NCBI GenBank assembly: GCA_001805055.1
Contig: MHDZ01000066.1
Location: forward strand, 4,904 to 63,619
Source: Nitrospirae bacterium GWC2_57_13
GTDB lineage: Bacteria > Nitrospirota > UBA9217
Length of the DNA stretch: 58,716 bases
Direction: 5' to 3'
The notes beneath the pieces are model-generated. The model saw only the letters and a program-made list of their open reading frames with translations. It had not been told where the DNA came from and ran no database searches. A program made the translations under genes and the position numbers. Shown in pieces: positions 17,440-33,398 of the stretch (positions within the stretch are counted from its first letter, which is position 1; every line of letters starts with the position of its first letter).

Positions 17440-18132
17440 TTAGGAGGCGAATCGCCGGGGCAGGGAAGCTCGGGCAGCCTCCAGACATTGCATCGTCCGG
17501 GAACCTGACAGCTCCCCTGAGGCGTTCCTCTTCATGAACTCCCTGACGTCTTCGAAGGTGTCCACATCAGGCCATTTCGGGAGTCCATGAACGCGCAGCT
17601 CGGCGTTCTCGAGCAGGGCCATCGTTTCCGGGTAGACGCGCGGCGAACTCCAGGGAATGCCGTAGAAGGCGACAGGAAGGAAGGTGTCCTGGTGGAAGCC
17701 GATGAGATAGTAGCCGCCGTCAACGGAAGGACCGATAACGGCGTCGCTGAAAGCAAGTGATTTCACGGCCTGGTTGATGATGCGAAGCGGCAGGTCCGGG
17801 ATGTCGCTCCCGATGATCACCGCCCGCTCGAAGCCGTCATCAAAGGCCTGGCGGAATGCCCCTTCCATCCTTGCGCCCAGGTCCCCCTCGGGCTGCGGCG
17901 CATCCTCCCATCCGTCGCCGAGCCATGCCTTTACCTTATCGCCGGCATCAGCGGGAGCATAACAGATCCGGAGGGGAAGTCCTGTCTTCCGGACCGTCGC
18001 AAGGATGTCCGCTGCAAAGGCTCGGTACAGGTCCAGCGTCACGTCATCGCCAAGGTCCTTGCTCAGGCGCGTCTTGACCTTCCCCTTCTCGGGATATTTT
18101 ATAAATAGAATTATGCAGGTTTCTGTGGTCAT
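17440..18132 (-). CDS. arsenosugar-biosynthesis-associated glycosyltransferase (TIGR04282/DUF2064-like)
   Basis: KYPEKGKVKTRL, QPEGDLGARM, IIGSDIP, IGPSVDGGYYLIG, DVDTFED; adjacent to ArsS-like gene. Confidence 0.85.
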   Translation of the reverse strand: MTTETCIILFIKYPEKGKVKTRLSKDLGDDVTLDLYRAFAADILATVRKTGLPLRICYAPADAGDKVKAWLGDGWEDAPQPEGDLGARMEGAFRQAFDDGFERAVIIGSDIPDLPLRIINQAVKSLAFSDAVIGPSVDGGYYLIGFHQDTFLPVAFYGIPWSSPRVYPETMALLENAELRVHGLPKWPDVDTFEDVREFMKRNASGELSGSRTMQCLEAARASLPRRFAS

Positions 18133-18346
18133 GGCTGTTCTGATCCTGATGTGACATACTTCAAAAGCAAAGGCATCTCTCGCAAAGCTCGCAAAGGAAA
18201 CCATTACGTCCAGGATTGAAAGTCAAAAGGCCAGGCCTTTCTTGGCGCTCTTTGCGCCTTGGCGAGAAAACATCTTGCCTTTTGCTTGCCTGTTGACTGA
18301 CACACAGACACCGAAAATCTTCTCTCGATATTACAGGAGTGTGCGC

Positions 18347-20365
18347 CTAACAGCACGACGGCCCGCTGCGTCCCTTATCCTGCTCCTGCTTCATCAGCTC
18401 CGCCGCGGTCGTACTGCAGCCCTGGAACAGGCCGAAGTGCTCATCGAAGCTACCCGTGATCTCGAAAAAGCTTCCGAAGCGCGTGCGCGAAAGCATGAAC
18501 GCCGTGTTGCCGCAGACGCGCTCGGGCCGGTTCCGTTCGAACACATGCCCGTCGTCCAGAATGAACCGGAAGGGCGATTCAGGCACGCCTCCTTTATATA
18601 CTGCAACATGCCCATAGTCCTCGCAGGCGTCCTCAAGGCCTTCTATCTTCCAGAGACGGTACGTGACGGAATAGAACGTGATATTCCCGACAAGGGCCTT
18701 GACCGCTTCGTCGGTGATCTCGATAGCGCGCTTCGAGACGATCCGCGGGTCCGTGAACCCGGCTCGCCGCGCCATGCGCTCAAAGTCCTTCCAGTACAGC
18801 GCGCCGCCGAGGCACTCGCCGTAGAGCACGCGGTTCGTCCGGAGTGGTTCAGGCAGCCGCCGGTCGGCATAGACGTCGGAAAAATAGAACTCTCCGCCGT
18901 CCTTCAGAACGTCAAAGATCGAACGCAGCACGCGCTCCTTGTCCTCCACCAGGTTGATCACACAGTTGGAAGTGACGAGATCCACCGATCGGGCAGGGAC
19001 ATGCTGTCCCACGTTCTCCATCGCGTCGTGGATGAACGAGGTGTTCGGACGTGAGAACCCGAACCGTTCAGCCTGCTCTGCCTCGTATCTCTTCGCCACA
19101 TCGATCTGCGCCTTTGTCATGTCGATGCCGTGGACGAATCCCTGCTCGCCGGCCAGATAGGCCATCACATAGCTGTCGCGGCCCGTGCCGCAGCCCATGT
19201 CAAGGATGGTGAGCCCCCGGATATGGTCCGGGACCACATTGCCGCAGCCATAGTACTTCATCTTGATCTCGTCATGGACAAACGGCATGACCTGACGGAT
19301 ATGGGCCGGCATGGCATCGAGAGTGCAGCAGGCGCTTGTCTTGAGGTCTGCTGACTGCATGAGCTCCTCACCGTAGTACTGCTGGACTGTTTCCTTCACA
19401 TCAAAATCTGATGGGGCCTCGCCTGCATCGCTTTTGACCAGGGCGCCGTGGCAGCTGCTGCCGCTCCCGACGGTGCAGGCATAGCAATACTCCGCGCAGG
19501 CGATCTCGGGATGGAATTGATCGAGATCTATCTCCCAGAACCGGCGTTCCTCATATCCCGGGATGCGCCGCTGCGCTGCGAGGTTGAAATCGCAATCGTA
19601 CAGGCAACCCTGATAATCCACAGAAACAAGATTCCGGCACATGACGCGGTCAAGGGTCGCGGGATTGTGGTGCCTCTTCAGGAGCTCAAGATAGCGGTCA
19701 TAGGCCCCCTCCTGTTCGAGACGATCCTTGTACCGGGCCAGGGGGGCATTCACCATGGTGAAGAGGCGGTTAAACCATACACCGTGCCGGTCCTTCAGGA
19801 GGGAACGATACTCTGACTCTACCTCAGCTTCCGGCGGCGGGAGAAAATCACCGGAGGGATTATACACCAGATCGAGCGAGAGGCTGTCGGCCCCGTAACC
19901 TGCTGCATTGAGCTGCTTCAGCGCTGCGATGCTCCGCTCAAACACGCCTGCGCCGCGCTGCCGGTCCGTCGTTTCCTTGAAGACCGCGGGCAGCGACGCG
20001 ATAAGCCTCACGCCATGCTTCCGGTAGAGTTCGATATAACGCGCATGCTCGGGCATGGTCAGCACGGTGAGATTGGTGCGCACGGTCACGCGCCTGGCTG
20101 CCGTCGAGAGCTGCTCGATAAACAGCGCGAGGCTGGGGTTCATCTCAGGAGCGCCGCCGGTGAACTCGATGCTCATGATGTCCGAACCGAGCAGTTTCGC
20201 CAGCACCTTTTCGGCTGTGGCGCTGTCCATGTTCCGGTCGCCTGCAGGCGAACCCTCCACGTGGCAGTGGGTGCAGGACTGGTTGCACCGGTTGCCAAGG
20301 TTCACCTGCACGGTCTCGATCTGTCCTTTTGCAATTTTCCAATCGCTGAACACTGCCGATCCCAT
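18347..20365 (-). CDS. arsS: fused arsenosugar radical SAM enzyme (ArsS-like) and arsenite S-adenosylmethyltransferase (ArsM-like)
   Basis: N-half: VQVNLGNRCNQSCTHCH, LVYNPSG, CRNLVSVDYQGCLYDCDFN, CYACTVGSGSSC. C-half: DLKTSACC, YYGCG, LDMGCGTGRD, SNCVINL, GECLGGALYW, CEDYG, C-terminal CC. Confidence 0.85.
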   Translation of the reverse strand: MGSAVFSDWKIAKGQIETVQVNLGNRCNQSCTHCHVEGSPAGDRNMDSATAEKVLAKLLGSDIMSIEFTGGAPEMNPSLALFIEQLSTAARRVTVRTNLTVLTMPEHARYIELYRKHGVRLIASLPAVFKETTDRQRGAGVFERSIAALKQLNAAGYGADSLSLDLVYNPSGDFLPPPEAEVESEYRSLLKDRHGVWFNRLFTMVNAPLARYKDRLEQEGAYDRYLELLKRHHNPATLDRVMCRNLVSVDYQGCLYDCDFNLAAQRRIPGYEERRFWEIDLDQFHPEIACAEYCYACTVGSGSSCHGALVKSDAGEAPSDFDVKETVQQYYGEELMQSADLKTSACCTLDAMPAHIRQVMPFVHDEIKMKYYGCGNVVPDHIRGLTILDMGCGTGRDSYVMAYLAGEQGFVHGIDMTKAQIDVAKRYEAEQAERFGFSRPNTSFIHDAMENVGQHVPARSVDLVTSNCVINLVEDKERVLRSIFDVLKDGGEFYFSDVYADRRLPEPLRTNRVLYGECLGGALYWKDFERMARRAGFTDPRIVSKRAIEITDEAVKALVGNITFYSVTYRLWKIEGLEDACEDYGHVAVYKGGVPESPFRFILDDGHVFERNRPERVCGNTAFMLSRTRFGSFFEITGSFDEHFGLFQGCSTTAAELMKQEQDKGRSGPSCC

Positions 20366-20432
20366 CAATGATCTCCTTACCCGCATAAAGCGAAATGAAA
20401 ATTTGAAAAGTACAAATTTACAAAAAAACAGC

Positions 20433-20483
20433 GTAGGGGCGGGCATGCCCGCCCTCGGAAGAGCGACCATGGTCGCCCCTACG
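20433..20483. repeat. REP-like palindrome GTAGGGGCG...CGCCCCTAC
   Basis: Inverted repeat; shares gcgaccatggtcgcccctacg with 41761-41784. Confidence 0.65.
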
Positions 20484-20561
20484 GCACGCCCAAATCCGGG
20501 TCAGCCGAAAAAGCAGAAAGAGAACAATATGCTCATTCCTTCGGGCTTTACAAATCCACTT

Positions 20562-21302
20562 CTATCCGCGCTCATCTGCGTCCAATTCGCCTCTGCTCTT
20601 CTTCCTCTCCGGCTCATTCCGATAGTACTTCTTCAGCCGTTCCGGCGGAACGCCGACGGCATACATCACCTGGAGCATCATGTTCCGCACTGTGCTGTAC
20701 AGGACCCCTTCGCGCTCCCAGCGCCGCGCCGAGGTACTGACCTTCTCCGGTATGATGCGGACCCGGCCGTTGCTTTTTTTGACGCGGCCCATGAGGTCCA
20801 CGTCTTCCATCAGCGGGATGTCACGATACCCATCGAGCCGCTCGAACAGGGAACGGGTCAAGAATATCCCCTGGTCCCCGAAGGGGATGCGTGTGATCCG
20901 CGTCCGGAGCGCTACATAGGCCTCGGTGATCTTGAAGATCCGGCGCTTTGTATCAATACCCAGGTCAAAGGCGCCGGCGTCCCATCGCCCCCCCTTCATT
21001 GTTTCACCAATGAGCCCAAAGGCCTGTTGCGGCAGCCAGGTATCAGCGTGCAGGAAGAGGAATACATCATGCGTTGCTTTCTTCGATCCCACATTCATCT
21101 GCCGTGCCCTGCCCGCTGATGATACTGACTTGACAACGTCCCGGTCGCGGATTGCTGAGATCGTATCCTGTTCCCCGGCGCCGTCGACGACAATGATCTC
21201 CACTGGCACGGGCGATGTAAGGCCCCGGAGGTATTCGATCAGTTCGTTGATCACGTTGGCCTCATGAAGCACGGGGATGATGACCGAGATCCCCTTGATC
21301 AA
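20562..21302 (-). CDS. family 2 glycosyltransferase (TIGR04283-like, arsenosugar-associated)
   Basis: ISVIIPVLHEA, GRARQMNVG, FLHADT, PFGDQG, PLMEDV, TSARRW. Confidence 0.85.
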   Translation of the reverse strand: MIKGISVIIPVLHEANVINELIEYLRGLTSPVPVEIIVVDGAGEQDTISAIRDRDVVKSVSSAGRARQMNVGSKKATHDVFLFLHADTWLPQQAFGLIGETMKGGRWDAGAFDLGIDTKRRIFKITEAYVALRTRITRIPFGDQGIFLTRSLFERLDGYRDIPLMEDVDLMGRVKKSNGRVRIIPEKVSTSARRWEREGVLYSTVRNMMLQVMYAVGVPPERLKKYYRNEPERKKSRGELDADERG

Positions 21303-22150
21303 AAGAACTCCCTGATCGCGGGACCGATGTCCGGCGCCTTCGCCGGCAGCCGCACCAGCGGCGCCTTGGCAAGCACCGGCACCTGCTCTTCATAGATCGG
21401 CCGCTGCCGCCGGTAGATCACACCGAGCGGGATGCGTTCCCCCCATTCCAGCGCTTTCGTGAAGGCCGCACTGCGGTCCGCTGGATCATGCTCGGGACCC
21501 AGACGGTACACCCGCTTGCTGTACCACTCATAGGTGTTCACCTTGTTGAAGGTCACGCAGGGCTGCAGGATGTCGACAAGGGTGAACCCCTTGTGCTTGA
21601 CGGCCTCCTTGATCAACCCCTTCAGATGCTCTCCGTCGCCGGCAAAGCCCCGCGCCGCAAAGCTGCAGTCCAGCGCAACAGCCAGCGCCATGGGGTTCAA
21701 CTGCTCCGAGATGACGCCGGCGGGCATGTTCTTCGTCTTCGTACCCTCGCCCGTGGTGGGCGATGCCTGTCCCTTGGTGAGTCCGTAGATCTGGTTATCA
21801 TGCACGAAGAGCTTGACGTTGACGTTCCGCCGCATGGTGTGCGCAAGATGGTTGCCGCCCTCGCCGTAGCAGTCGCCGTCGCCGGCAACGGCGATCACGA
21901 GCATCTCATGGTTCGCCAGCCGAAGGCCTGTTGCCACGGGCAGGGTCCTGCCGTGGAGACCGTTGAAGGTATTGCACCGGATATAGTGCGGGAATTTCGA
22001 TGCCTGCCCGATGCCCGAGACCATGGTGAACTGGTGTGGCTCGATTTCGAGCTCTGCCATGGCCTCCCTGAAGGTCGTGAGTATGGAAAAATTTCCGCAT
22101 CCCGGACACCATGTCGGGACCTGTCCTTCATAATCCTTTGCTGTCACCAT
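21299..22150 (-). CDS. korB: 2-oxoacid:ferredoxin oxidoreductase subunit beta
   Basis: WCPGCGN, VSGIGQ, LHGR, GDGDCYGEGGNH (TPP motif), YGLTKGQASPT. Confidence 0.9.
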   Translation of the reverse strand: MVTAKDYEGQVPTWCPGCGNFSILTTFREAMAELEIEPHQFTMVSGIGQASKFPHYIRCNTFNGLHGRTLPVATGLRLANHEMLVIAVAGDGDCYGEGGNHLAHTMRRNVNVKLFVHDNQIYGLTKGQASPTTGEGTKTKNMPAGVISEQLNPMALAVALDCSFAARGFAGDGEHLKGLIKEAVKHKGFTLVDILQPCVTFNKVNTYEWYSKRVYRLGPEHDPADRSAAFTKALEWGERIPLGVIYRRQRPIYEEQVPVLAKAPLVRLPAKAPDIGPAIREFF

Positions 22151-22266
22151 GATGATCTCCTGACCCGTAATAAGCGGAATTGGAAAGTGCAAATTGCCTT
22201 CTACCTATGCGGCTTTTATGGGCATGCTCAATCTGCGCTACCTATCGACACTCTTTTGTCGATCTC

Positions 22267-24006
22267 TTACCGCCTCTTGATCTTTCCCTTCAGCTCCTTC
22301 ACAAGCGAGTCCACCGTGAAGGGTCTTCCGTCATAGCGCCGCACATGCCCGCTGAACACAAATCCTGTTTCGGCCCGCAGGAGCCGCTCGAACTGGCCTG
22401 TGGCGTTATTCTCGATACAGATGGTCTGTCCGGCCTTTTTGAGTACCGACAGATATCCCGATGCTTCTGCCGCAGGCAGGGGAAATACCTCGCTGAAGTG
22501 CAGCATGGCTGCGGAATGCGTGGCCGACAGTTCGTCCACGGCCTCGCGCAGCACGCCGTAGGTCGAGCCCCAGCAGGTGATGACGACCTCGGGGTGCAGG
22601 TCGCCATAGAACAACGGCGGCGCGATCTCTTTCTGGATGCGCGGCAGCTTCTTCAACAACCGCTTCTCGACCATCCGGTTCCGCGTTTCCCCGTCCTCGA
22701 CGATATGCCCTGCCTCGTCGTGCTCATCACTGTCCGTCACCACGAGATGCTTCGCGTCACCGGGTACGCCGAGGGGGGTGACGCCGTTCGCTGTATAGGC
22801 GTGGCGCTGGTATTCAGCGAGCCCGCTGAAAGCCTCTCCGCGCAGACGGTAGTCAGTATACTTCACCTTGGATAGATCGAAGTCCTCGTAGGTCCACTGC
22901 GAATCAGCCAGGTATTGGTCGAAGAGAATGAAAACCGGTATCTGGTATTTCTCGGCCAGGTCAAAAGCCCGCGCTGTCTGAAGCAGGGCCTGGACCGGCG
23001 TCCCTGGCGCGAAGATGATGCGCGGGAATTCGCCGTGGCCCGCTGAGACCAGGAACTGCAGTTCGCCCTGCTCCGTTCGCGTGGGCAGGCCCGTTGCAGG
23101 GCCGGGACGCTGACCCATGGCAATGACCACCGGCGTTTCAGTGATCCCGGCAAGCGAAAGCCCTTCGACCATCAGCGCGAAGCCGCCGCCTGACGTGCCC
23201 GTCATGGCGCGGACCCCGGCAAAAGAGGCGCCCAGGGCCATATTGATGGCCGCGATCTCGTCCTCTGCCTGTTCGACGACGATGCCGAACTGCTCCGCCT
23301 TTGACGCGATATAGTTCATGATGCCCGTCGACGGCGTCATGGGATAGGCTGCATAGAACCTGCATCCTCCTGCAATGGCGCCCAGCGCGATAGTTTCGAT
23401 GCCTGCAATGAGCAGCCGTTTCTTTCGCGATGCCTTTGTGTCCTTCTTTTCCCCGGCAAAGGAACAGGTAACGCACTGCTCCACGGCGAGCTCGTGCCCT
23501 GCCTGGGCCGCCTTCCGGTTCGCGCTGACCACCGCTTCGCCTTTTTTCCCGAAGGTCTCGGCGATGATGGCGAGAAGCGCATCGAGCTCCATGCCCAGCA
23601 TGCCGAGCACAGCGCCTGTTGCGACCGTGTTCGCCATGATCGGGCTGCCGCCGTGCTCTTTGGCCAGCTTGGCAAAGGGAATATCGATGAAGGCAGGACC
23701 TTCGTAGGTCTTCTTGAGGGCCGAGGAGTCGTACACTACCTGCGCCCGCCTTGTGCGCTCCTTCTCGTAGCGCGGGATGGTCTCGCTGTCCAGGGCAACA
23801 AGAATGTCGATGCCGTCCCGCGAGGCGTAGACCGGCTGCGTTGACACGCGGATCTGATAAAAATTATGGCCTCCGCGCACCCTCGACTCGTAGTCCTGGT
23901 GCGTGAACACAAAGTAACCTGTCCGCACGAAGACCCGCCCCAGGGTCTCGCCGATCGTCTGGATCCCCTGGCCTGCTGCGCCGCCTATCCGTATCGTGTA
24001 GTCCAT
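22267..24006 (-). CDS. korA: 2-oxoacid:ferredoxin oxidoreductase subunit alpha (gamma-alpha fusion)
   Basis: GGAAGQG, SRVRGGHN, YPMTPST, QAEDEIAA, TSGGGFALM, QRPGPATGLPT. Confidence 0.9.
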   Translation of the reverse strand: MDYTIRIGGAAGQGIQTIGETLGRVFVRTGYFVFTHQDYESRVRGGHNFYQIRVSTQPVYASRDGIDILVALDSETIPRYEKERTRRAQVVYDSSALKKTYEGPAFIDIPFAKLAKEHGGSPIMANTVATGAVLGMLGMELDALLAIIAETFGKKGEAVVSANRKAAQAGHELAVEQCVTCSFAGEKKDTKASRKKRLLIAGIETIALGAIAGGCRFYAAYPMTPSTGIMNYIASKAEQFGIVVEQAEDEIAAINMALGASFAGVRAMTGTSGGGFALMVEGLSLAGITETPVVIAMGQRPGPATGLPTRTEQGELQFLVSAGHGEFPRIIFAPGTPVQALLQTARAFDLAEKYQIPVFILFDQYLADSQWTYEDFDLSKVKYTDYRLRGEAFSGLAEYQRHAYTANGVTPLGVPGDAKHLVVTDSDEHDEAGHIVEDGETRNRMVEKRLLKKLPRIQKEIAPPLFYGDLHPEVVITCWGSTYGVLREAVDELSATHSAAMLHFSEVFPLPAAEASGYLSVLKKAGQTICIENNATGQFERLLRAETGFVFSGHVRRYDGRPFTVDSLVKELKGKIKRR

Positions 24007-24073
24007 GCTGTCGCTCCCTTGCCGGTTCTGCACTGTAGGGACAGTCCCCCCCCTGGGACAGTCTCCGTGAGAC

Positions 24074-24110
24074 AGGGACAGTCCCCCTGGAATCAAAGGG
24101 GACTGTCCCT
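24074..24110. repeat. REP-like palindrome AGGGACAGTCCCC..GGGGACTGTCCCT
   Basis: Near-identical copy at 52964-53000; half copy near 51664-51680. Confidence 0.7.
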
Positions 24111-24446
24111 TTTCAGTTCGTCAACCAGATCTTCTATCTCGATGGTCCCTTTATCGAGCAGATGCGCCAGCAGAACAAATCCTCCGCAGGGAACCGCCTG
24201 CCCGCCGGTGAGGATGAAATCGCAATCCTCCGCAAAGAAATCACAGTCAGAGCACATACTGCTCTTGAGTTTTTCTACCACAATAGCGGACGGCCCGGTC
24301 ATCTCTGCGGGGCGATCGAGCGGAACGCGCCTGCCATTCTGCATCAGACGCCGGACAATGACGGCTCCCCTGCACTCAAGCTCTTCGTTCTTTTCCGGTT
24401 TGTAGTATTTGCAGAAATTGAGGCACAGCTTCTTATCGCTCTTCAT
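24093..24446 (-). CDS. small Cys-rich hypothetical protein
   Basis: CLNFCKYYKP...CRG...CSDCDFFAEDCDF...PCGG; directly upstream of korA on the same strand. Confidence 0.7.
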   Translation of the reverse strand: MKSDKKLCLNFCKYYKPEKNEELECRGAVIVRRLMQNGRRVPLDRPAEMTGPSAIVVEKLKSSMCSDCDFFAEDCDFILTGGQAVPCGGFVLLAHLLDKGTIEIEDLVDELKRDSPL

Positions 24447-24841
24447 ACTTTACCACGCTGCCAGCCAGGCACAGGAGCCTGTTGTTCGAGATTCCCTCTC
24501 ATGCGCCGCCATCTGCAGCAACTCGGCGCCCGCATGCTTCAGCATGTTCTCTCTACCGACGGCCATTAATGCTGTGTGCGGCTTGATTGTGAAAACCGGA
24601 TTAGTGTTCCGAAACTGCGAGGCCACAGGGCAGTGTGACCTCGTGAATGGCCAATAGTCTTTCGCTGCCGCTTCCTCTGTTTATTATACCAGCCTTTTCC
24701 GGTGAATTCCAGCTGACAGAACAATTCACTGTCCTCGGAAAGCATTCAACGTACTCTTGATGACTTTGCAGCAGGTGCATTATATCGCAATGGGCAGGCG
24801 GTCGGACCTTGATCGGCCTTGCAACGTGGTATAATAACCTT

Positions 24842-25972
24842 ATGCGTTACTTTCTTGCACGGGATGCGGCGCTCAAATGGCTCGAGACGCCGGCGGTCTA
24901 TCACATCCAGAACGATGAACTGTACGAACTCGACGAGGCCTCTTTTGCTTTTTTCGAGTCCTGCACTTCTGAGAAAGGGTGCGCCTCCCGGGACAGCGCC
25001 TTCCTTGACTACTCGCTTGAGGAAGGTCTGATCTCGACGGAACGGTCACCGGTTCCGCAACCGAAGCTCAAGAAAGCGCCTGCCCCCTCCCTTCGCTATC
25101 TAGAACTGCAGATCACCGACGCCTGCAACCTTCGGTGCAAACACTGCTACATCGAAGACAGCCACAATGCGGAACTGCCTCTGGACCGGATCCGCTTGGT
25201 CCTGAAAGAATTCGAGGACATGCAGGGACTGCGTCTGTTGATCACGGGGGGAGAACCGCTTCTGCACAGTGCCTTCAACGATGTGAATGCCATGCTTCCC
25301 GAATTCAGCTTTCGAAAGATCCTGTTCACGAACGGACTTGCGCTGCCTGCCCAGGACCTCGGCGGCCTGAACGTCCATGAAATCCAGCTCAGCATAGACG
25401 GGCTGGAAAAGGCCCATGATGCCCTGCGCGGACAGGGCACCTTCACGCGCACCATCGACGCGGCCACGCGGGCCCTCGATGCCGGTTTCGATGTCTCCAT
25501 CTCAACGATGGTCCATCCCGAAAACTTCGAAGACTTCGACGGCATGGAACGCCTGTTCCGGAGCATGAAGATCAAGGACTGGACCGTAGACGTGCCCTGC
25601 CTAACCGGCAGGCTGAAGGATAACGCCGATTTCCAGGTGCTGCCTGAAGAAGGAGGGAAATATCTGGGCTACGGATTCGGCGGCGGCCTCCACAGCTCGG
25701 GCGCGGGGTTCGGATGCGGCCTCCATCTCATGTCCGTGCTGGCCGACGGCCGGGCGGCGAAGTGCACGTTCTACGCGGACCGGGCCGTCGGGTCCGTCGA
25801 TGAAGGTCTTCGGACCTGCTGGCAGCGGGTACGGCCCGTCCCGCTCGCCTCGCTCACCTGTGACTGCTCCTATCTCGAAGCCTGCAGGGGGGGCTGCCGG
25901 TTCCGCGCGGAACTGCTCTCGGGTAAGAACGGAAAAGACCTTTACAGATGTGCCCTCTATGGTATAGAATAG
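24842..25972 (+). CDS. radical SAM/SPASM protein, probable peptide maturase
   Basis: CNLRCKHC, TGGEP, SPASM Cys (CGLH..KC..CDC..CRGGC..C); about 80-aa N-terminal extension resembling a RiPP recognition element. Confidence 0.85.
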   Translation: MRYFLARDAALKWLETPAVYHIQNDELYELDEASFAFFESCTSEKGCASRDSAFLDYSLEEGLISTERSPVPQPKLKKAPAPSLRYLELQITDACNLRCKHCYIEDSHNAELPLDRIRLVLKEFEDMQGLRLLITGGEPLLHSAFNDVNAMLPEFSFRKILFTNGLALPAQDLGGLNVHEIQLSIDGLEKAHDALRGQGTFTRTIDAATRALDAGFDVSISTMVHPENFEDFDGMERLFRSMKIKDWTVDVPCLTGRLKDNADFQVLPEEGGKYLGYGFGGGLHSSGAGFGCGLHLMSVLADGRAAKCTFYADRAVGSVDEGLRTCWQRVRPVPLASLTCDCSYLEACRGGCRFRAELLSGKNGKDLYRCALYGIE

Positions 25973-26034
25973 ATTCATTATAAGCGTCTGATCGCTTTCA
26001 ACAACGACCTTATTCTCGGAAAAGGAGGATCGCG

Positions 26035-26097
26035 GTGAAGATCAAAAAAGTTTCGAAAAAGGCAGCCCTGACCTGCAAGTGCAAAAGCTCGTGCTAA
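26035..26097 (+). CDS. putative RiPP precursor micro-peptide, 20 aa (MKIKKVSKKAALTCKCKSSC)
   Basis: AAAGGAGG RBS 6 nt before GTG; Lys-rich leader and CxCxxxC tail; lies between rSAM/SPASM gene and a terminator. Confidence 0.7.
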   Translation: MKIKKVSKKAALTCKCKSSC

Positions 26098-26130
26098 GGG
26101 ACAACTGGCCGCTCACGGCATTACATAAGC

Positions 26131-26167
26131 CGCCCCGTTCACGCTCCATCAACGGGGCGTTTATTTT
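26131..26167 (+). terminator. rho-independent terminator
   Basis: cgccccgtt...aacggggcg stem followed by tttatttt. Confidence 0.7.
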
Positions 26168-26223: not shown

Positions 26224-27270
26224 ATGAAACTCGCCTTGAAGAACTTGATGACCTGCAGCGCCGTTATTCTTCTGCTGCTGACGGCCTGCGCTCCGAAACA
26301 GGCGCCCGTGGGCGGACATCCCGCAGAAACGATCTCCGATTCGGCCCTGCGACCCGACGCGCCGGAGCGCCCGGCTCAGGAAGGAACGCGGACGAGATCT
26401 CAGGGCGAGGAAAAGGCGCCCGGGAGCGAAGCTGTTGAATCGACAGCGCCCGATGTCCCTCCCGATGCCGGGAACGCCAGGTCCTTTTTTGAGCGCGGCA
26501 TCACCTCGTCGAAAAAGGAGCGCTATGATGACGCGATTGCCGAGTATGCGCGCGCCATCGAGCTGAACCCGTCCTATGCTGCAGCGTATAACGAGCGGGG
26601 CTTCGCTTACGCGCAGAAGGCCCAGTACGACAGGGCCATCACGGACTATGCAAAAGCGATCAATCTGAATCCGCGGTATGACGCCGCCTACTACAATCTC
26701 GGCAATGCCTACTATCACAAGGGCCGCTATGAGCCGGCGATCGCCAATTACGACAAGGCGCTCGAATACAATCCCCGCCACTTCATGGCCTTCAACAACC
26801 GCGGCAACTCCTGGTACCAGAAGGCGGAGTTCGGCAGGGCCATTGCCGACTATGTCCGGGCGCTTGAGCACCGGCCGAAGTACGATGAGGCCTATTACAA
26901 CATGGGCAACGCCTATTACCGGAAGGGTGAGTACGAACGGGCCGTGGACAACTACACAAAGGCGATCGAGCTGAACCCGGCGTCGAACCGGTCCTATACG
27001 AACCGGGGCGTCGCCTTCATCATGCGGGGAAAATACGACGACGCCGAGCAGGACATCAGGAAGGCCCTGTCCCTGGACCGTGAGGACAGCGAAGCCATGG
27101 TGCGCATGGCAGAGCTGCACGCGGCGAAAAAGGATGTGGCCGAGGCCTGCCGGTGGCTCCGGCGCGCCGTGGAAAAGGGATACCGCGACAGGAACTATCT
27201 TGCGGCGTCAAAGACCCTGGACCCCATACGCGCTTTTCCCTGCTTCGAGGAGGCCCTTGCGGGCAGATAG
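26224..27270 (+). CDS. TPR-repeat lipoprotein
   Basis: Lipobox LTAC; about six 34-aa TPR units (AYNERG/AYYNLG/AFNNRG). Confidence 0.9.
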   Translation: MKLALKNLMTCSAVILLLLTACAPKQAPVGGHPAETISDSALRPDAPERPAQEGTRTRSQGEEKAPGSEAVESTAPDVPPDAGNARSFFERGITSSKKERYDDAIAEYARAIELNPSYAAAYNERGFAYAQKAQYDRAITDYAKAINLNPRYDAAYYNLGNAYYHKGRYEPAIANYDKALEYNPRHFMAFNNRGNSWYQKAEFGRAIADYVRALEHRPKYDEAYYNMGNAYYRKGEYERAVDNYTKAIELNPASNRSYTNRGVAFIMRGKYDDAEQDIRKALSLDREDSEAMVRMAELHAAKKDVAEACRWLRRAVEKGYRDRNYLAASKTLDPIRAFPCFEEALAGR

Positions 27271-27428: not shown

Positions 27429-28262
27429 CTATTTTATATGACACCGTTCGCAGAAATTCGCCGGTGCCTGCTTCGCGGGAACAAGAATGTCCGCCCCATG
27501 GGGCGCGTGGCAGGTCGCGCAGGAAAGATCTTTTCCCTTCCGGAGAGGATCGGGTTTGCCGCTCACGGGATGATCGTCGGCGAAACCAAAACCCGCCATG
27601 AGGTGCCTGCCGTCGGCCCGATTCACATGGCAGGTCGCGCAGAGCTCGTTCAACGGCTTGTACAGGAGGTACGGATGGTCCGTGGTGTGCGGATTATGGC
27701 ATGACGCGCACTCCACCTGGTCCTCCTGTGCGCCGAAGAGCCGAACTCCTTTTTTCCTCGCTGCAGTTATGCCGGCCAGGCCCGCCCCCGGAGGATCGTA
27801 GGTGATCCCTGACGGATGGTCGCCCGAGAGATAATCAGAGGGCTCATATCCTGCAAGCGGATCGTAGGCGCTGCCCGCCCGCCCTGTTCTCTTCCCTTCG
27901 TACTTCCCTTCGCTGCGATAGTCCATGTTCCGGGCAATGGCGCCGTCATGACAGGAAAGGCATACCAGAGAGTTCGCTCCGGGCCGCGGCAGTTTCTCAA
28001 ACTGCTGCGTCGGCTCCCATGCGTACAGAGGATACTGCTCCACAGGCTTCACGTTCAGGTCCTTCATCCATACCGGCGTCCGCTGAGCGCCCCCGCCGCG
28101 CGGAATATGGCAGAAGGTGCAGGCTGCACCGCTGTCCTGCGCGAAGGACCGTTCGCTGTCCCGCGTCAGGTCGTGCTTGGAACCGGCGATCCCGGCAAGG
28201 GCGTTGCCGGCCGGCAGGAGAAGGGACGCTGCGAGAACTGCAAGCACCGGGATTCTCATCAT
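27429..28262 (-). CDS. hexaheme cytochrome c with OmcE-like tetraheme core
   Basis: Signal peptide from ATG 28262; CTFCH, CLSCH, CASCH, CATCH, CATCH, CERCH; GSKHDL, DHP and CHNPH motifs. Confidence 0.85.
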   Translation of the reverse strand: MMRIPVLAVLAASLLLPAGNALAGIAGSKHDLTRDSERSFAQDSGAACTFCHIPRGGGAQRTPVWMKDLNVKPVEQYPLYAWEPTQQFEKLPRPGANSLVCLSCHDGAIARNMDYRSEGKYEGKRTGRAGSAYDPLAGYEPSDYLSGDHPSGITYDPPGAGLAGITAARKKGVRLFGAQEDQVECASCHNPHTTDHPYLLYKPLNELCATCHVNRADGRHLMAGFGFADDHPVSGKPDPLRKGKDLSCATCHAPHGADILVPAKQAPANFCERCHIK

Positions 28263-28263
28263 A

Positions 28264-29304
28264 TCACCTCGCACCCGTTCCCGACGGAGCGCTTCGCTTC
28301 CGCTGCTCCTCGAACTTCTTTCCTGCATACTGGAACATATGCACCGCTCCCGGCCACTGGTCCACGACATAGATCCGGTCCTGCTCGTCGATGCTGATGC
28401 CTGCGGGAAGCGTGAACCGGCCCGGTCCGAGGCCGCCTGTGCCGAAGTAATACAGGAGCGTGCCGTCGGTGTCGAAGATCTGGACGTTCTGGAAAGCTGC
28501 GTCAACAACATAGACATGGTCTTCCGAGTCAATGGCGATGCCCTTCGGCCTTGCAAAAGCGCCGGGCGCGTCGCCGATGCCGCCGATGCTTCTCAGGTAC
28601 TTGCCGTCACGGTCAAAAGCCTGGACCCGGAAGTTGCCGGTGTCTACAACATAGAGAGTGCCCCTGGAGTCGACAGCAACGCTCGTGGGAAAATTGAACT
28701 TATCTTTCTCCTTGATTCCCCTCGAACCGATGGTTCGCTGCAGCCGGTAATCCTTCAACCCGTATACCGCCACGCGATGTTTCCTGCTGTCAACGACGTA
28801 GAGCTTTCCGTTCCGCTCATCAACTGCCACGCCGCAGGGCAATTCGAGCTCCTCTGCACCGCCGACGCTCGCAATCCGTTTTCCGTCGGCGGAATGAACG
28901 AAGACCTTGCGCGCCGCGCTGTCGGCCGTGAAGATCCTGCCGTCGCTGCTCACGGCGATGCCGAGCGGCTCGGACCGCGCTGCGTCAGTACCGCCACTGC
29001 CAAGGAAGCCGGACCGCTTTTTTCCCGGGTGAAAGAAGACAATGCGCCCGCGGTCCGTAACGTACATCCGTCCGCTCAGGTCAACAGCAACGCCGTAGGG
29101 CTTCCTAAGCGTGATCGTTCCCTCTTTACCGCCGCCCGCATCGCGGGAGCTTCTGATCGCCCCCAGGTGATGGATCTTCGCGGTCTCTGTCGCATCAGAC
29201 CATGCGGGGCCAGCGCCGCCCCCTGACTGGGCGGCATGAACAACCGGCGCGAACAGCAGCAGCAACAGAAGCGCAACTCCTGCGATGGTACGCGACGACG
29301 ACAT
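28264..29304 (-). CDS. exported NHL-repeat beta-propeller protein
   Basis: Repeated PxGIAVD..G.IYV.D....RV..F units; signal peptide from ATG 29304. Confidence 0.88.
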   Translation of the reverse strand: MSSSRTIAGVALLLLLLFAPVVHAAQSGGGAGPAWSDATETAKIHHLGAIRSSRDAGGGKEGTITLRKPYGVAVDLSGRMYVTDRGRIVFFHPGKKRSGFLGSGGTDAARSEPLGIAVSSDGRIFTADSAARKVFVHSADGKRIASVGGAEELELPCGVAVDERNGKLYVVDSRKHRVAVYGLKDYRLQRTIGSRGIKEKDKFNFPTSVAVDSRGTLYVVDTGNFRVQAFDRDGKYLRSIGGIGDAPGAFARPKGIAIDSEDHVYVVDAAFQNVQIFDTDGTLLYYFGTGGLGPGRFTLPAGISIDEQDRIYVVDQWPGAVHMFQYAGKKFEEQRKRSAPSGTGAR

Positions 29305-29621
29305 GAGCCGATTCGGGAAAAGATATATGATGAGTCCGGAACAACAGTACATTTCCGCTTTCCTTTCTGCATCAGGCAAATACGCCGTCAGCCTCTCATC
29401 AAAACAACAACGGCAAACCGCGATGACTACGAAACGGACCCATTGTATCGAAGATGATGAATCAAATCAAACAAAAATCAGCGCAGGATTTAATATACGA
29501 AGTAAGTATTAAGATTGATTGTTGCGATCCCTCGCATCAACTTTCCGAAATTTTATTGACATTTCTGCAAGCCGCTATTATAGTCGACAACAAATTGCGA
29601 ACTACACGCTACAAAATAATC

Positions 29622-31031
29622 ATGTTAAAAAATCTTTCCGCCATACCGCTTTTGCTGACGATCGCACTGTGCCCGCCTGCAGTCCTGCATGCGGCTTCTG
29701 CAGCGCTGGACAGCGCACCTGTCACAACCGAGCTGCCCTTTTTTCGTTCAGCCGGCGGTGCGGCGATCGTCAAGGGATCCTTCGCCACCCAGTATGCCAT
29801 CCGCGTGGCGGGCGTCTCCGGCAACCGCGATACGGACAATGACCTGCACGAACGGCTTCGCCTGGATGTGTACTCGCCGCAGCGCGATACAGGCTATGAG
29901 CTTCACTTTTTTGCCGCAGCATCGCAGGACCTTGACGGCGACCGGAATCGCACAGGCTTTTTCCCTCTCGAAGACATCAATGACGCTCGCGATTCCTGGT
30001 TCAGCGGATACGTATATGAAGCCCATTACGATCTGAACAGGCCGGCTCCCTATGTGACCCAACTTCGTATCGGCAGACAGGCAGGCACACGGGACGAGCC
30101 GGTGTTCTTTGACGGGATCGCCGCGGACCTTGCCCTCGGCTCCCTGATGAACATGACAGCATACGGCGGTGCGTCGGTCCATTTCTACGAGATCGACCAG
30201 GATTGGGGTTCGGACCTCCTCGGCGGAGCAGGGATCGATCTCCACCCCTTCCGGTCCACCATGCTGAGCCTGGATTATCTTCATGCAGAGGATGAGCGCA
30301 ATCTCGTTGGCACCTCCGACCAGGCTGATGAGCTGCTGTCGCTCAGGCTGCGCCAGCGTCTCGGACTCTTCACCAGGACCATGGTCGCCTACCGTTCCCT
30401 GAACGGCGAACCCCGCGACGTCAAGGCAAGGCTCCTGCAGTCCTTTCCGTCAGCTGATCTCGAGCTGAGCTTCACCTGGTTCCGGCAGTTCCGGGAACAG
30501 AACGAACTTTCGAACGAACTTTCTCCCTATTTCGACATTCTCGGAAGCTCCTTTCCCTATCAGACCTATGACGCAAAGATCAGGAAGGCCTTCGGCTCCC
30601 ACGTGGCCGTTGATCTTGGGTATTACAAACGGGAACTCCTGAAGGAACGTGTTGAGAATGCCTTTAACCGCGAATATGAACGGGCCTTTGCTGTTCTGCA
30701 ATTCTCCGACATCGTGAAGAAGGGCCTGTCGTTCTCTCTCACCGGGGACTGGTGGGAGACCCTTGATCGGGAATTCACCTCTGCCGGATTTGACGCTGAG
30801 TACCGTTTCGGAAAGGACCGGAAAAAAACCCGCCTCAACGCCGGGACCTACTACAGCCTCTACAAGTTCGACTATTATATTCTTCTTGGCGAGCGGGAGA
30901 AGGTGCGGACCTATTACGTGAAAGGCGGGACGCCGCTGACCACGTCAATATCACTCGATATATCCTATGAGTATGAGGACAGCATCGAAAATTACTCGGT
31001 TGCACGCATGGGGATGCGCTATGACTTTTAA
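29622..31031 (+). CDS. outer-membrane beta-barrel (porin of a porin-cytochrome conduit)
   Basis: Signal peptide; RIGRQ and FDG motifs; alternating amphipathic strands; C-terminal GMRYDF; coupled to cytochrome genes. Confidence 0.75.
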   Translation: MLKNLSAIPLLLTIALCPPAVLHAASAALDSAPVTTELPFFRSAGGAAIVKGSFATQYAIRVAGVSGNRDTDNDLHERLRLDVYSPQRDTGYELHFFAAASQDLDGDRNRTGFFPLEDINDARDSWFSGYVYEAHYDLNRPAPYVTQLRIGRQAGTRDEPVFFDGIAADLALGSLMNMTAYGGASVHFYEIDQDWGSDLLGGAGIDLHPFRSTMLSLDYLHAEDERNLVGTSDQADELLSLRLRQRLGLFTRTMVAYRSLNGEPRDVKARLLQSFPSADLELSFTWFRQFREQNELSNELSPYFDILGSSFPYQTYDAKIRKAFGSHVAVDLGYYKRELLKERVENAFNREYERAFAVLQFSDIVKKGLSFSLTGDWWETLDREFTSAGFDAEYRFGKDRKKTRLNAGTYYSLYKFDYYILLGEREKVRTYYVKGGTPLTTSISLDISYEYEDSIENYSVARMGMRYDF

Positions 31032-31611
31032 GGGAACTTCAAGATGCCAAACGCTCCTGCTGATGCTCGGCTTTGCATCGCTGTTCTGTTTCACGATGGC
31101 CGCATCGACCTGGGGCGAGGCGCCGGCAGGGTCCGGGGCAGATGCAAAGAAGATTCCCTTCCCCATGCCGAACTCTCACAAAGGCAACTGGCTCCAATAC
31201 CATGGCGCCTCAGCGGACCTCACCATGAACGAGGCCGACAGCAAGGGTAAGGCCTGCTATGTCTGCCATGAGCGGAATGAGTGCATGGAGTGCCACAATA
31301 CGACGATGCCGAAGGACCACACCAACACCTGGCGCACTCTGAGCCATGGTTTCCAGGCCGAGGGCAACCGCGACCGGTGCCAGAACTGCCACCGGCAGGA
31401 CTACTGTGTCCGCTGCCATAACGAGACGGCCCCGCGTACGCACACAGCCAACTGGCGGTCACGCCACTGCACCTGGTGTCATTATGGGTCGAGCCTTGCA
31501 CCTGACGACAACTGCGTGGTCTGCCATAAACAGGCGCTTCATACTTCGGCTCCTCTCGGTCACACAATAAGTCCTACTGTGACCTGCATTCAGGTTGGAT
31601 GTCACCAGTGA
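31021..31611 (+). CDS. periplasmic multiheme cytochrome c (6 CxxCH + 1 CX4CH)
   Basis: CYVCH, CMECH, CQNCH, CVRCH, CTWCH, CVVCH, CIQVGCH; HxxxWxxxH spacers. Start uncertain. Confidence 0.85.
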   Translation: MTFKGTSRCQTLLLMLGFASLFCFTMAASTWGEAPAGSGADAKKIPFPMPNSHKGNWLQYHGASADLTMNEADSKGKACYVCHERNECMECHNTTMPKDHTNTWRTLSHGFQAEGNRDRCQNCHRQDYCVRCHNETAPRTHTANWRSRHCTWCHYGSSLAPDDNCVVCHKQALHTSAPLGHTISPTVTCIQVGCHQ

Positions 31612-31864
31612 CAGGACTGCGGACTCATGTTACCTCAACCACAGACCGCTGGCTTGGTCATGAAAATCGCGCCGCATATCACGTTTCAGTTTCTTCGATG
31701 ATGCCTGATAAGCCTTGTTCTGCTATTGCTTTAGTAGCCATAAGTTGCTGAAAAGTGATAAAATACGGATAAGCGGATAAGTAAATACTAAGTAAATACA
31801 TAGAGGCCGAGACGTGACCATTATGTAGCAAAACATGTCACTCTGTAGTAAGGGGATTATCCAG

Positions 31865-33385
31865 ATGAATGTACGCGCTTTCATGCCAGTACTGCTCGCG
31901 ACGGCGGTATTCGGTTGCGGACCCGCGGAAGGTCCTGATGCGCTCACCAACAAGCAGGTAACGTCACCGCCTTCCAATTGCAATGCCGTATGCCATTCAG
32001 CCACAAGCATCATCTCGCCCGACCCGGTGATTACTAACGGATCAGGTTCCGCTGGAAAACATGTTGCTCATGTCTCAGACATTGGGTTCGATTGCGAAAA
32101 ATGTCATCTGGGCTATGATTCACAAATAACGCATATGAACCAGCAGCCCGAGACCGGCCCGGCTGTCACGCTCGTATACTTCGATTCAACCAATCCCCCA
32201 CCTGCGCTTTGGACGAAAATTCAAGGCCCTCCACGTACGGGAACTTGTTCGAACCTCGCATGTCATGGCACTGATACCCTCGACTGGTATGGGACCGACA
32301 CTTCATCTTACCAGGACTGCGTTACCTGTCATGCCTATGCGATCAGTTCACGCCGCCAGGTCGTCGGCGCTCAGGGTGACTTTGGCGGGAATTCCAGTAT
32401 TGCTTCGCATCATGTGAACGGCAGCGATCCTACCAATGCTCAGTGCCTGGTCTGCCATAACCAGTCAACGCATACTCAGGGTACGGTCAGGTTGCGTCAT
32501 GCAGACACCGGTGCAAGCATCGTCTATGATCCCGCGGACCTCACATCCCTCGAACCCTTTTGCCTGAGTTGCCATGACTCCAATGGAGCTGCGCTGACGA
32601 GCATAGGTCCATCGGCGTTCAGACCTTTTGCTGGATCCACACTTGGCCAGATACCTTACCTCGGCGGGACGCGCGTTGCTAGTGACTGGGGAAAGTCATA
32701 CGGTCACAACCAGAAAGGACTGACCTGCATGGGCAATGGAAGTCCCACTACAGGATGCCATGCAAACGGACACGGATCAAGCCATGTAGGAATTCTTGCA
32801 AGGAATATGACCCTTCCGGTACCAGCTGACAGGTACATCGAAAACGATTATGATCTGTGCCTCAACTGCCACAGTTCCTACACGGGCGTTCGCAAGGAGG
32901 ATATTTTCGGCGTGCGGTTTGGTGGCGCATATTACCGAGGGTATGGACCGGGGTTCAATTTTCCGCCTTATGACATCCCTTCAATCCACACAAAGTTCAG
33001 GGACCAGAACAACCGGGGGACTGGCTATCCCTATGATAACAGCAGTATCTATATAGACTTTTGGCTATGGGGTGCCAATTCGGTGAATTTGCACTGGGTG
33101 CATATTGCCTTGGACGTCTGGAATTACCGCGGCGCAGTGCCTTCTGGCGTCAGCTGTACCGCCTGTCACAATGTGCATGGAACAAACAATCCTTACGGCA
33201 TGACACACGATGAAATGGGATACCAGCATTATGTGGAAGTAAATGGTGACCAATATTCACAATTGAATTCTATAAGCCCGTACCTTCTTGACCTGCATCC
33301 CATGAACTGTACTTTTGGTTGCCACAAGCCAGTCGAGCCTGGATTTGGCCAAGCTTCAGCATGGTTCGAGTCGGCGAATGAATAA
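31865..33385 (+). CDS. outer-surface lipoprotein multiheme cytochrome c (about 10 hemes, some non-canonical)
   Basis: Lipobox VFGC; six CxxCH plus CNAVCH, CTFGCH, CSNLACH and CMGNGSPTTGCH. Confidence 0.85.
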   Translation: MNVRAFMPVLLATAVFGCGPAEGPDALTNKQVTSPPSNCNAVCHSATSIISPDPVITNGSGSAGKHVAHVSDIGFDCEKCHLGYDSQITHMNQQPETGPAVTLVYFDSTNPPPALWTKIQGPPRTGTCSNLACHGTDTLDWYGTDTSSYQDCVTCHAYAISSRRQVVGAQGDFGGNSSIASHHVNGSDPTNAQCLVCHNQSTHTQGTVRLRHADTGASIVYDPADLTSLEPFCLSCHDSNGAALTSIGPSAFRPFAGSTLGQIPYLGGTRVASDWGKSYGHNQKGLTCMGNGSPTTGCHANGHGSSHVGILARNMTLPVPADRYIENDYDLCLNCHSSYTGVRKEDIFGVRFGGAYYRGYGPGFNFPPYDIPSIHTKFRDQNNRGTGYPYDNSSIYIDFWLWGANSVNLHWVHIALDVWNYRGAVPSGVSCTACHNVHGTNNPYGMTHDEMGYQHYVEVNGDQYSQLNSISPYLLDLHPMNCTFGCHKPVEPGFGQASAWFESANE

Positions 33386-33398
33386 GGAATATTTGAAG

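Follow-up and report, generated by a model that had tools for sequence, protein, structure and literature searches.

A gene for a radical S-adenosylmethionine (SAM)/SPASM enzyme, followed on the same strand by a micro open reading frame (ORF) of 20 codons, is located at positions 24842 to 26167 of a 58,716-nt stretch of DNA from Nitrospirae bacterium GWC2_57_13 (Nitrospirota; GenBank assembly GCA_001805055.1, contig MHDZ01000066.1), which at its full length is referred to as the window. The present analysis concerns the proposition that these genes encode an enzyme and its substrate in a system for a ribosomally made, post-translationally modified peptide (RiPP). An earlier note on this DNA had described a radical SAM/SPASM enzyme followed by a Cys-rich peptide of 20 amino acids (aa), and both are present, as ORFs at 24842-25972 and 26035-26097; the 62-nt gap from the enzyme stop to the micro-ORF start, the Shine-Dalgarno (SD) site with GTG start, and the terminator behind them were likewise found where it had placed them. 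The features of the locus are the following:

24827..24835, + strand: TG-n-TATAAT, an extended -10 promoter element with its end 6 nt 5' of the enzyme ATG
24842..25972, + strand: enzyme ORF (radical SAM/SPASM, 376 aa, P0001), ATG start to stop
24842..25075, + strand: N-terminal RRE-like domain (RRE, RiPP recognition element), residues 1 to approximately 78; four strands then two helices in the domain model
25124..25147, + strand: radical SAM [4Fe-4S] cluster motif CX3CX2C (C95, C99, C102)
25715..25951, + strand: SPASM domain; its seven conserved Cys are C292, C308, C340, C342, C348, C352 and C370
25941..25970, + strand: promoter-like site in the enzyme 3' end, 10/12 consensus matches
26021..26028, + strand: SD site of the micro-ORF, AAAGGAGG, core GGAGG
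26035..26097, + strand: micro-ORF (P0002), GTG at 26035, 20 codons plus stop; Lys-rich N-terminal half and C-terminal CKCKSSC
26131..26167, + strand: intrinsic terminator closing the enzyme-peptide unit; 9-bp GC-rich stem (26131-26139 / 26151-26159) and T-run (26160-26167)

Of 61 related genomes, 43 contain a full-length, single-copy ortholog of the enzyme, and all 43 loci were compared. Conservation of the micro-ORF beside orthologs had been set beforehand, in the earlier note, as the expectation by which its proposal should be judged, and a 20-codon micro-ORF indeed adjoins the enzyme gene in 38/43 of these loci, as well as in 29/45 metagenome loci (see below). In all ortholog micro-ORFs the first half is rich in Lys, and a Cys-x-Cys-x3-Cys at the C-terminus runs to the stop. 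Besides a strict pattern with fixed length and Cys spacing, a looser search for any 12-45-aa ORF ending in the Cys-x-Cys motif was performed, which recovered all strict-pattern micro-ORFs except the one in locus L041, where it overlaps the end of the enzyme frame. In this locus (genome G055, 2640-2850) the enzyme frame is approximately 28 codons longer than usual and shares DNA with the peptide ORF, which is read in a different frame; this is either a real overlap or an assembly error. Among the loci that lack an adjacent peptide, those of G037 and G046 lie at contig ends. In these two genomes the peptide is encoded on a different contig, as it is in G039, in which no peptide is found beside the enzyme.

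The 38 micro-ORF copies are all distinct in nucleotide sequence and encode 30 different peptides, in which the three Cys of the core as well as Lys are invariant. Mean column entropy at codon positions 1, 2 and 3 amounts to 0.38, 0.34 and 1.08, respectively, the third position being about 3-fold more variable than the others, and the pooled pN/pS (nonsynonymous to synonymous) ratio is 0.19, with a Jukes-Cantor-corrected dN/dS of 0.06 at which dS is saturated. The stop is at a constant position and is encoded by TAA (10), TAG (10) or TGA (18), while the spacer between the enzyme and peptide genes ranges from overlap to 260 nt and is unalignable. Conservation beside the orthologs and variation in a coding pattern mark this as more than a chance 20-codon ORF, and by its pattern of substitution the micro-ORF is a real coding gene. 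The alternative, that the micro-ORF is untranslated and the conserved stretch represents an RNA or DNA element, can draw on the lack of direct evidence for translation and on the peptide being missing from protein databases: none of 10 peptide variants (0/10) was found in a collection of approximately 15 billion predicted proteins, which indicates that the gene is systematically unannotated, and the peptide matches 0 NCBIfam families. Nevertheless, the third-position variation, a dN/dS of approximately 0.06-0.19, the fixed stop position with varying stop codons, the strong SD at correct spacing ahead of 38/38 copies, and the retention of the frame whether the gene lies upstream, downstream, opposite or distant from the enzyme all oppose it, and the codon pattern renders it very unlikely, to the point that we consider it hardly tenable.

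The expression signals of the two genes differ markedly in design. Translation of the enzyme is assigned to the ATG at 24842 rather than to the upstream TTG at 24809, since ortholog N-termini align from residue 1. An SD motif was found at 0/41 ortholog enzyme starts, while a TATAAT or TATACT hexamer ends 6-7 nt 5' of the ATG in 36/41 (tallied by eye), usually with TG one base upstream. With a -10 element that ends only 6 nt 5' of the ATG in the window, the mRNA of the enzyme is apparently leaderless; this element was left unflagged by a consensus promoter scan because a -35 hexamer is not present at 16-18 nt. The micro-ORFs, on the other hand, are preceded in 38/38 orthologs by a purine-rich SD of the GGAGG type, occasionally GGGAGG or GGAGC. 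The combination of an SD-less enzyme and a near-perfect SD on the peptide fits a pair of catalyst and substrate. The internal promoter-like site at 25941..25970, a weak result with one site versus 0.5 expected, is a possible separate promoter for the peptide. The terminator was found by a scan and has a fold energy of -28.5 kcal/mol (z -3.3), and a terminator-like hairpin with T-run is present within 90 nt 3' of 35/38 ortholog micro-ORFs.

The enzyme has a single Pfam match, Radical_SAM (PF04055; 4e-19, 69.8 bits versus a cut-off of 29.5, residues 90-237), and in an alignment of 54 relatives with 23-67% identity C95, C99 and C102 of the CX3CX2C motif are invariant (54/54). The same alignment shows C292, C308, C342, C348 and C352 to be invariant and C340 and C370 to be at least 90% conserved, which together constitute a 7-Cys SPASM pattern, and the NCBIfam SPASM model TIGR04085 is matched at 31.4 bits (cut-off 27, residues 280-376). 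An AlphaFold2 model built on this alignment reached a predicted local distance difference test score (pLDDT) of 94.5 and a predicted template modelling score of 0.93. Its best whole-chain structural match is SuiB (Z 26.6, root-mean-square deviation 4.2, 355 residues, model 2-375 versus chain 1-439), followed by SkfB (Z 25.4), 5wgg/5why (Z 23.6-23.9), anSME (Z 23.1-23.6) and PqqE (Z 20.4), so that the nearest solved structures of the enzyme model are peptide-modifying radical SAM enzymes. Similarly, a profile search of the PDB returned SkfB first (1.4e-34), then PqqE (2.7e-28), BlsE, 5wgg (4e-24), anSME and SuiB. Among the best 25 of 76 NCBIfam matches no curated maturase cut-off was reached: the top match, WgkB (NF050035), scored 84.9 bits versus 650, the mycofactocin maturase TIGR03962 62 bits versus 265, and the SkfB model TIGR04403 47.7 versus 300. 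The ranthipeptide/sactipeptide assignment put forward in the earlier note stands as a resemblance of layout only and does not extend to membership in a curated maturase family.

The enzyme family appears narrow, since only 85 clusters in a representative library of 1.84 billion proteins match it at 1e-30 or better; close homologs come from metagenome-assembled genomes with the organism names 'Nitrospirota bacterium' and 'Thermodesulfovibrionales bacterium', and its matches in the Protein Atlas are generic radical SAM clusters only. The geopeptide maturase TIGR04280, matched by a C-terminal piece at 17.4 bits versus a cut-off of 400, was rejected as a candidate family. Four relatives with 41-46% identity (P0131, P0133, P0136, P0140) are approximately 500 aa long and have an additional N-terminal extension of approximately 125 aa.

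The stretch that the earlier note quoted from the N-terminal extension corresponds to residues 19-64 of the enzyme, and the extension was suggested there to be an RRE. The N-terminal domain, modelled alone on 31 orthologs, obtained a pLDDT of 87.5 and consists of four strands then two helices. With this model Foldseek placed TbiB1 with its leader peptide on top (E 0.019), next to SuiB, lasso B1, MccB, LynD, TigE and ThcOx, and returned nothing at E 0.001 or better. Exhaustive structural alignment against 48,161 representative chains gave Z scores of 6.5 for TigE, 6.4 for TbiB1, 6.2 for lasso B1, 5.5 for MibB, 4.8 for PqqD, 4.4 for SuiB, 4.3 for the PbtF RRE and 3.4 for 5wgg, with MadB, NisB, ThcOx, TbtB, McbBCD, MccB and LynD also among the neighbours; approximately 16 of the 24 best chains, as judged by entry titles, are RiPP leader-binding proteins (Z 3.4-6.5). 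These models support that the N-terminal approximately 78 residues fold like an RRE, i.e., a PqqD-like winged helix, and the suggestion of the earlier note is in this sense sustained by the predicted fold and by leader-binding neighbours at Z 3.9-6.5, with scores that are modest and without a Pfam or NCBIfam match to PqqD.

The docking of the peptide on this domain was modelled from the alignment of the enzyme and one of the peptide with 30 rows, in three runs and with three controls. The complex model scored 0.83 (runs 0.84, 0.83 and 0.82), versus 0.01 for the best of the 3 controls; at that mark 116/157 solved complexes and 2/215 mismatched pairs pass in the calibration. The runs agreed in at least 54% of contacts, with a pLDDT of the partner of at least 59. 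The interface modelled with confidence comprises peptide residues 1-6 and 8-10 and enzyme residues 18-19, 26-31, 33-34, 37, 49-61 and 280-284, which suggests that the N-terminal half of the peptide binds the N-terminal domain at its edge strand and its helices.

Co-occurrence of both genes was determined in 301 species genomes sampled evenly from the Nitrospirota, with an enzyme threshold of E 1e-60 or better and, for the peptide, a 24-base degenerate pattern covering the last seven codons plus stop. The enzyme was detected in 129/301 genomes and the peptide pattern in 124/301, while a reversed-pattern control was found in 0; both genes are present in 123 genomes, the enzyme only in 6, the peptide motif only in 1, and neither in 171. 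The enzyme-only genomes include G018, which has a one-residue peptide variant, G046, which has a match to the peptide hidden Markov model (HMM), G128, with an enzyme fragment at a contig end, and G070, which is 65% complete, next to G002 and G005. At the family level, enzyme and peptide occur in 56 and 52/63 genomes of the window's own family, in 21 and 21/23, in 11 and 11/11 and in 5 and 5/5 genomes of three others, while in further families neither gene occurs (0/50, 0/28, 0/25, 0/11). In family f16 both genes are present in 11/11 genomes, with a 19-aa form of the peptide, and lie 120-680 kb apart in three single-contig genomes. Metagenome loci were collected with an 11-row enzyme alignment (a single-protein query of genome contigs gave 3 loci), and of the 45 loci keeping the enzyme 3' end, 29 contain the peptide and 4 have less than 70 nt of downstream DNA. 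The peptide gene is mostly downstream in these loci, with exceptions in which it is upstream (L084-L086, L088) or downstream on the opposite strand (L065).

We interpret the locus as a chromosomal, housekeeping-like radical-SAM enzyme-substrate pair of the RiPP type, and estimate the probability of this reading at about 0.72. In the mechanism proposed, the enzyme would be transcribed from the -10 element as an mRNA that begins at or beside the ATG, and which, being leaderless, would be translated weakly; the 20-codon ORF would be carried on the same transcript, or on a short one from the internal promoter, with a strong ribosome-binding site and an end at the terminator. The Lys-rich residues 1 to approximately 10 of the peptide would act as leader and, as in the complex model, dock as an added strand on the RRE of the enzyme, which would present the CKCKSSC core at the C-terminus to the active site, where 5'-deoxyadenosyl radical chemistry and two auxiliary SPASM clusters would modify it. 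The most likely products are intramolecular Cys thioether links of the sactionine or ranthionine type, in view of the three invariant core Cys, the 7-Cys SPASM domain, which in thioether synthases leaves one open iron site, and the presence of thioether synthases among the closest solved relatives. The residue three positions upstream of each core Cys is conserved (Ala, Thr and Lys, respectively), and by analogy to NxxC-type enzymes one may speculate that these residues serve as short-range acceptors. A protease, exporter or immunity gene was not found in any neighbourhood examined; with no accompanying protease or exporter, the product probably retains its leader and acts inside the cell.

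Several observations weigh against this interpretation. The Pfam SPASM model PF13186 gave no match to the enzyme at E up to 10, and residues 1-88 gave no match at the same level to any Pfam (PqqD PF05402 included) or NCBIfam model, while the structural scores of the domain model stay under the safe level (Z below 8; Foldseek E 0.019 at best). The calibration of the complex model included no chain shorter than 30 residues, its high score may stem from similarity to RRE-leader complexes of known structure (SuiB-SuiA, TbiB1-TbiA), and in the model only the leader is placed confidently and the core is not. The co-occurrence of enzyme and peptide partly reflects shared ancestry, since both of these genes, and that of a 7-Cys protein introduced below, are near-core in one large clade. 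Moreover, G002 (98% complete) and G005 (100% complete) have kept the enzyme while the peptide was not found by pattern or HMM, and G168 (99% complete) has the peptide, while an ortholog of the enzyme is missing and only distant paralogs are present (1e-17). In the metagenomes, 12/45 loci with sufficient flank have no peptide nearby, and a search for peptide variants in 11 metagenome loci revealed none that was convincing beside the enzyme. Finally, the RNA data cover contigs of relatives' enzyme genes only: metatranscriptome X20 (0.05 of words) contained no contig over the peptide and has no bearing on micro-ORF expression, one of its contigs being 839 nt long with 71 differing letters across 24986-25823, and the second RNA run (X21) was empty.

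Besides the enzyme and the peptide, a third gene has a comparable distribution. In the window it is divergent from the enzyme gene and opens a 2-oxoacid:ferredoxin oxidoreductase operon (22267-24096, 21299-22192):

24093..24446, - strand: 117-aa 7-Cys protein (P0273)

This protein has the invariant residues C8, C12, C25, C65, C68, C75 and C87 as well as a conserved Pro-Cys-Gly-Gly motif, and matches to it were not found in Pfam, NCBIfam or the PDB. It is encoded in 121/301 genomes, and the enzyme is present in 118 of these, while 11 genomes have the enzyme only and 3 the 7-Cys protein only; all three genes are present in 114 genomes and none of them in 169. Family f16 has retained it in 11/11 genomes despite gene dispersal. 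The gene adjoins that of the enzyme in 32 loci, and in metagenome loci L084, L085 and L088 it is located between the peptide and enzyme genes in the same direction, while in L090, L092 and L093 it is directly upstream of the enzyme. The 7-Cys protein probably belongs to this system, in the role of partner or of second substrate.

A stronger version of this idea holds that the approximately 110-aa 7-Cys protein is the true or main substrate of the enzyme, with a genuine peptide that works with the 7-Cys protein in another manner; the locus would then resemble the protein-thioether system CrpC/CrpA. It is favoured by the adjacency in 32 loci, by the 118 shared genomes versus 11 and 3 with one gene only, by the directly upstream, co-directional gene in the six metagenome loci named above, and by the exceptions, which link the peptide to the 7-Cys protein: G002 and G005 have the enzyme while neither the peptide nor the 7-Cys protein was found, and enzyme-less G168 has both. 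These exceptions amount to three cases, too few to decide, and the single-sequence search for the 7-Cys protein loses sensitivity at distance. There is also a precedent in an RRE-bearing SPASM enzyme described as cross-linking a Cys-rich protein (PMC13692751). Conversely, the RRE is occupied by the small peptide in the complex model (0.83 versus 0.01 for controls), the pairing of enzyme and peptide is tighter (7 discordant genomes versus 14 for enzyme and 7-Cys protein), and in the window the 7-Cys gene sits in the oxidoreductase operon on the other strand. We consider the 7-Cys protein unlikely to take the place of the peptide as the main substrate, although substrate roles of the peptide and of the 7-Cys protein are mutually compatible.

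In the window's own family the pair is typically flanked by the divergent 2-oxoacid:ferredoxin oxidoreductase operon and, in 28 loci, by a convergent rubrerythrin-like gene, which in the window itself is replaced by a gene for a lipoprotein with tetratricopeptide repeats (TPR; 26224-27270, + strand) after the terminator. Unlinked peptide copies have no common neighbour; encountered next to them are genes for a TPR protein/DUF2148/UvrA, YjgF, trehalose synthase, a P-type ATPase, acetyl-CoA synthetase/HD, superoxide dismutase/nitroreductase (G039) and LolA. A 552-aa TPR protein is also encoded 3' of the unlinked peptide copy in f16 genomes (L129-L131), which may be coincidence.

These surroundings bear on the possibility that the peptide gives rise to a small cofactor derived from it, or to a factor for metal or Fe-S handling, in the manner of pyrroloquinoline quinone (PQQ) or mycofactocin, instead of a cross-linked peptide product. 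A near-core, single-copy distribution in one clade (with the enzyme at the family frequencies given above) would suit such a function, as would neighbourhoods in which exporter, protease and immunity genes were not seen and in which redox genes recur (the 2-oxoacid:ferredoxin oxidoreductase, the rubrerythrin-like gene in 28 loci, and the superoxide dismutase and nitroreductase of G039); moreover, the three invariant Cys and invariant Lys could bind metal. However, unlike in PQQ and mycofactocin clusters, no conserved tailoring enzymes (peptidase, oxidase, glycosyltransferase) are found beside the pair, and the score of the enzyme for the mycofactocin maturase, like those for other cofactor maturases, is far under the cut-off. 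A precursor role of this kind is regarded as rather improbable.

Returning to the interpretation as a RiPP-type pair, a close parallel in layout and distribution is the SCIFF (six cysteines in forty-five residues) ranthipeptide system CteB/CteA, of which 5wgg/5why represent the enzyme. Both combine a radical SAM/SPASM enzyme that has an N-terminal RRE with a short Cys-rich ribosomal peptide, and the structural similarity extends over the catalytic and SPASM part (Z 23.6-23.9), with a PDB profile match that starts at position 40, inside the RRE. SCIFF systems are clade-wide, housekeeping-like and without a dedicated exporter, which also applies to the pair described here; their precursor is approximately 45 aa long with six Cys. 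The present pair differs in its 19-20-aa, three-Cys precursor, its occurrence in Nitrospirota, the co-occurring 7-Cys protein, the predicted leaderless enzyme mRNA, and the failure to reach any NCBIfam equivalog. The PDB profile search matched best to SkfB (6efn), the sactisynthase of the sporulation killing factor system SkfB/SkfA, which forms Cys thioethers in its peptide; it is also among the top Foldseek matches of the enzyme model and aligns structurally over model residues 7-363 (Z 25.4). SkfB has a twitch-type single auxiliary cluster and an N-terminal [2Fe-2S] domain, whereas in the present enzyme the SPASM domain is complete with 7 Cys and the N-terminus is RRE-like, and its score remains far from the TIGR04403 cut-off (47.7 bits versus 300). 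SuiB (5v1t), solved with its precursor SuiA bound, is the best whole-chain match with the N-terminal RRE included; however, sequence identity is 14-18%, and streptide contains a Lys-Trp C-C link, while the peptide here has no aromatic residue.

PqqE/PqqA share with the present pair a very short, often unannotated precursor, a radical SAM/SPASM enzyme (profile match 2.7e-28) and a PqqD-type RRE (Z 4.8). In PQQ systems the RRE is mostly a separate protein, the chemistry joins Glu and Tyr by a C-C bond, and the pathway depends on additional pqq genes; none of these traits was seen here. The comparison also puts the 'unusually short' precursor of the earlier note into perspective, which holds in a relative sense only, as PqqA is approximately 23 aa and MccA 7 aa long. 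Finally, in CrpC/CrpA of methanogens a SPASM enzyme with a predicted RRE is reported to install ranthionine links on a neighbouring Cys-rich protein (PMC13692751, 2026); on this description, the present pair is unlike CrpC/CrpA in also having a separate 20-aa peptide as the modelled ligand of the RRE.

An RRE-bearing radical SAM/SPASM maturase with a Cys-rich precursor is thus a well-known kind of system, but the family itself is undescribed: no Pfam, NCBIfam or PDB family covers the enzyme-peptide pair or the 7-Cys protein, the 7-letter core motif was not found in the literature library searched, and the papers on Nitrospirota RiPP or SPASM systems found there are general reviews and surveys of biosynthetic gene clusters, the supplements of which could list the cluster under an automatic label. 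The pair probably represents a new, housekeeping-like family of enzyme-modified peptides that is kept across a large branch of the Nitrospirota and that adds to the radical-SAM peptide-modifying systems. Its unusual traits are a whole precursor of 19-20 aa, an apparently leaderless enzyme mRNA, a near-core distribution within a clade, dispersal without loss, and a third, Cys-rich partner; the leaderless design, the absence of exporter and protease genes from the neighbourhoods examined, the 7-Cys protein and the class-wide distribution outside biosynthetic gene clusters were not part of the earlier note. A gene of 19-20 residues, invisible to gene callers, is in this way maintained in approximately 40% of the sampled Nitrospirota species genomes. 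Since the three genes stay together though scattered, and export genes are not found nearby, the product is probably cellular in role and not an antibiotic. The function of SCIFF-like peptides is a long-standing question, and with one enzyme, one 20-mer and cultured relatives that are likely to exist, the chemistry of this small pair is open to direct experiment.

A more far-reaching and tentative proposal, which we find conceivable though on balance doubtful, is that the modified 19-20-residue peptide, the radical SAM/SPASM enzyme and the 7-Cys protein form a three-part housekeeping system of anaerobic Nitrospirota that is not secreted, e.g., one that makes a peptide-derived redox or metal/Fe-S factor for ferredoxin-linked energy metabolism or for defence against oxidative stress. 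If true, this would be a new peptide-based cofactor-like system, as PQQ and mycofactocin once were.

Elsewhere in the window, a second radical SAM/SPASM protein of 373 aa is encoded at 51816-52937 (- strand; Radical_SAM 1.5e-21, SPASM 1.7e-10), which is devoid of the N-terminal extension; its gene adjoins multihaem cytochrome genes and probably represents the first pair to which the earlier note had alluded. The region 17440-21302 (- strand) encodes a DUF2064 protein, an unusual 707-aa fusion of a radical SAM domain, DUF3641 and a class I methyltransferase, and a family-2 glycosyltransferase. Finally, the regions 27429-35330 and 53698-54993 are dense in genes for multihaem c-type cytochromes and include a gene for an NHL-repeat beta-propeller protein, and this set of cytochromes suggests extracellular or periplasmic electron transfer.

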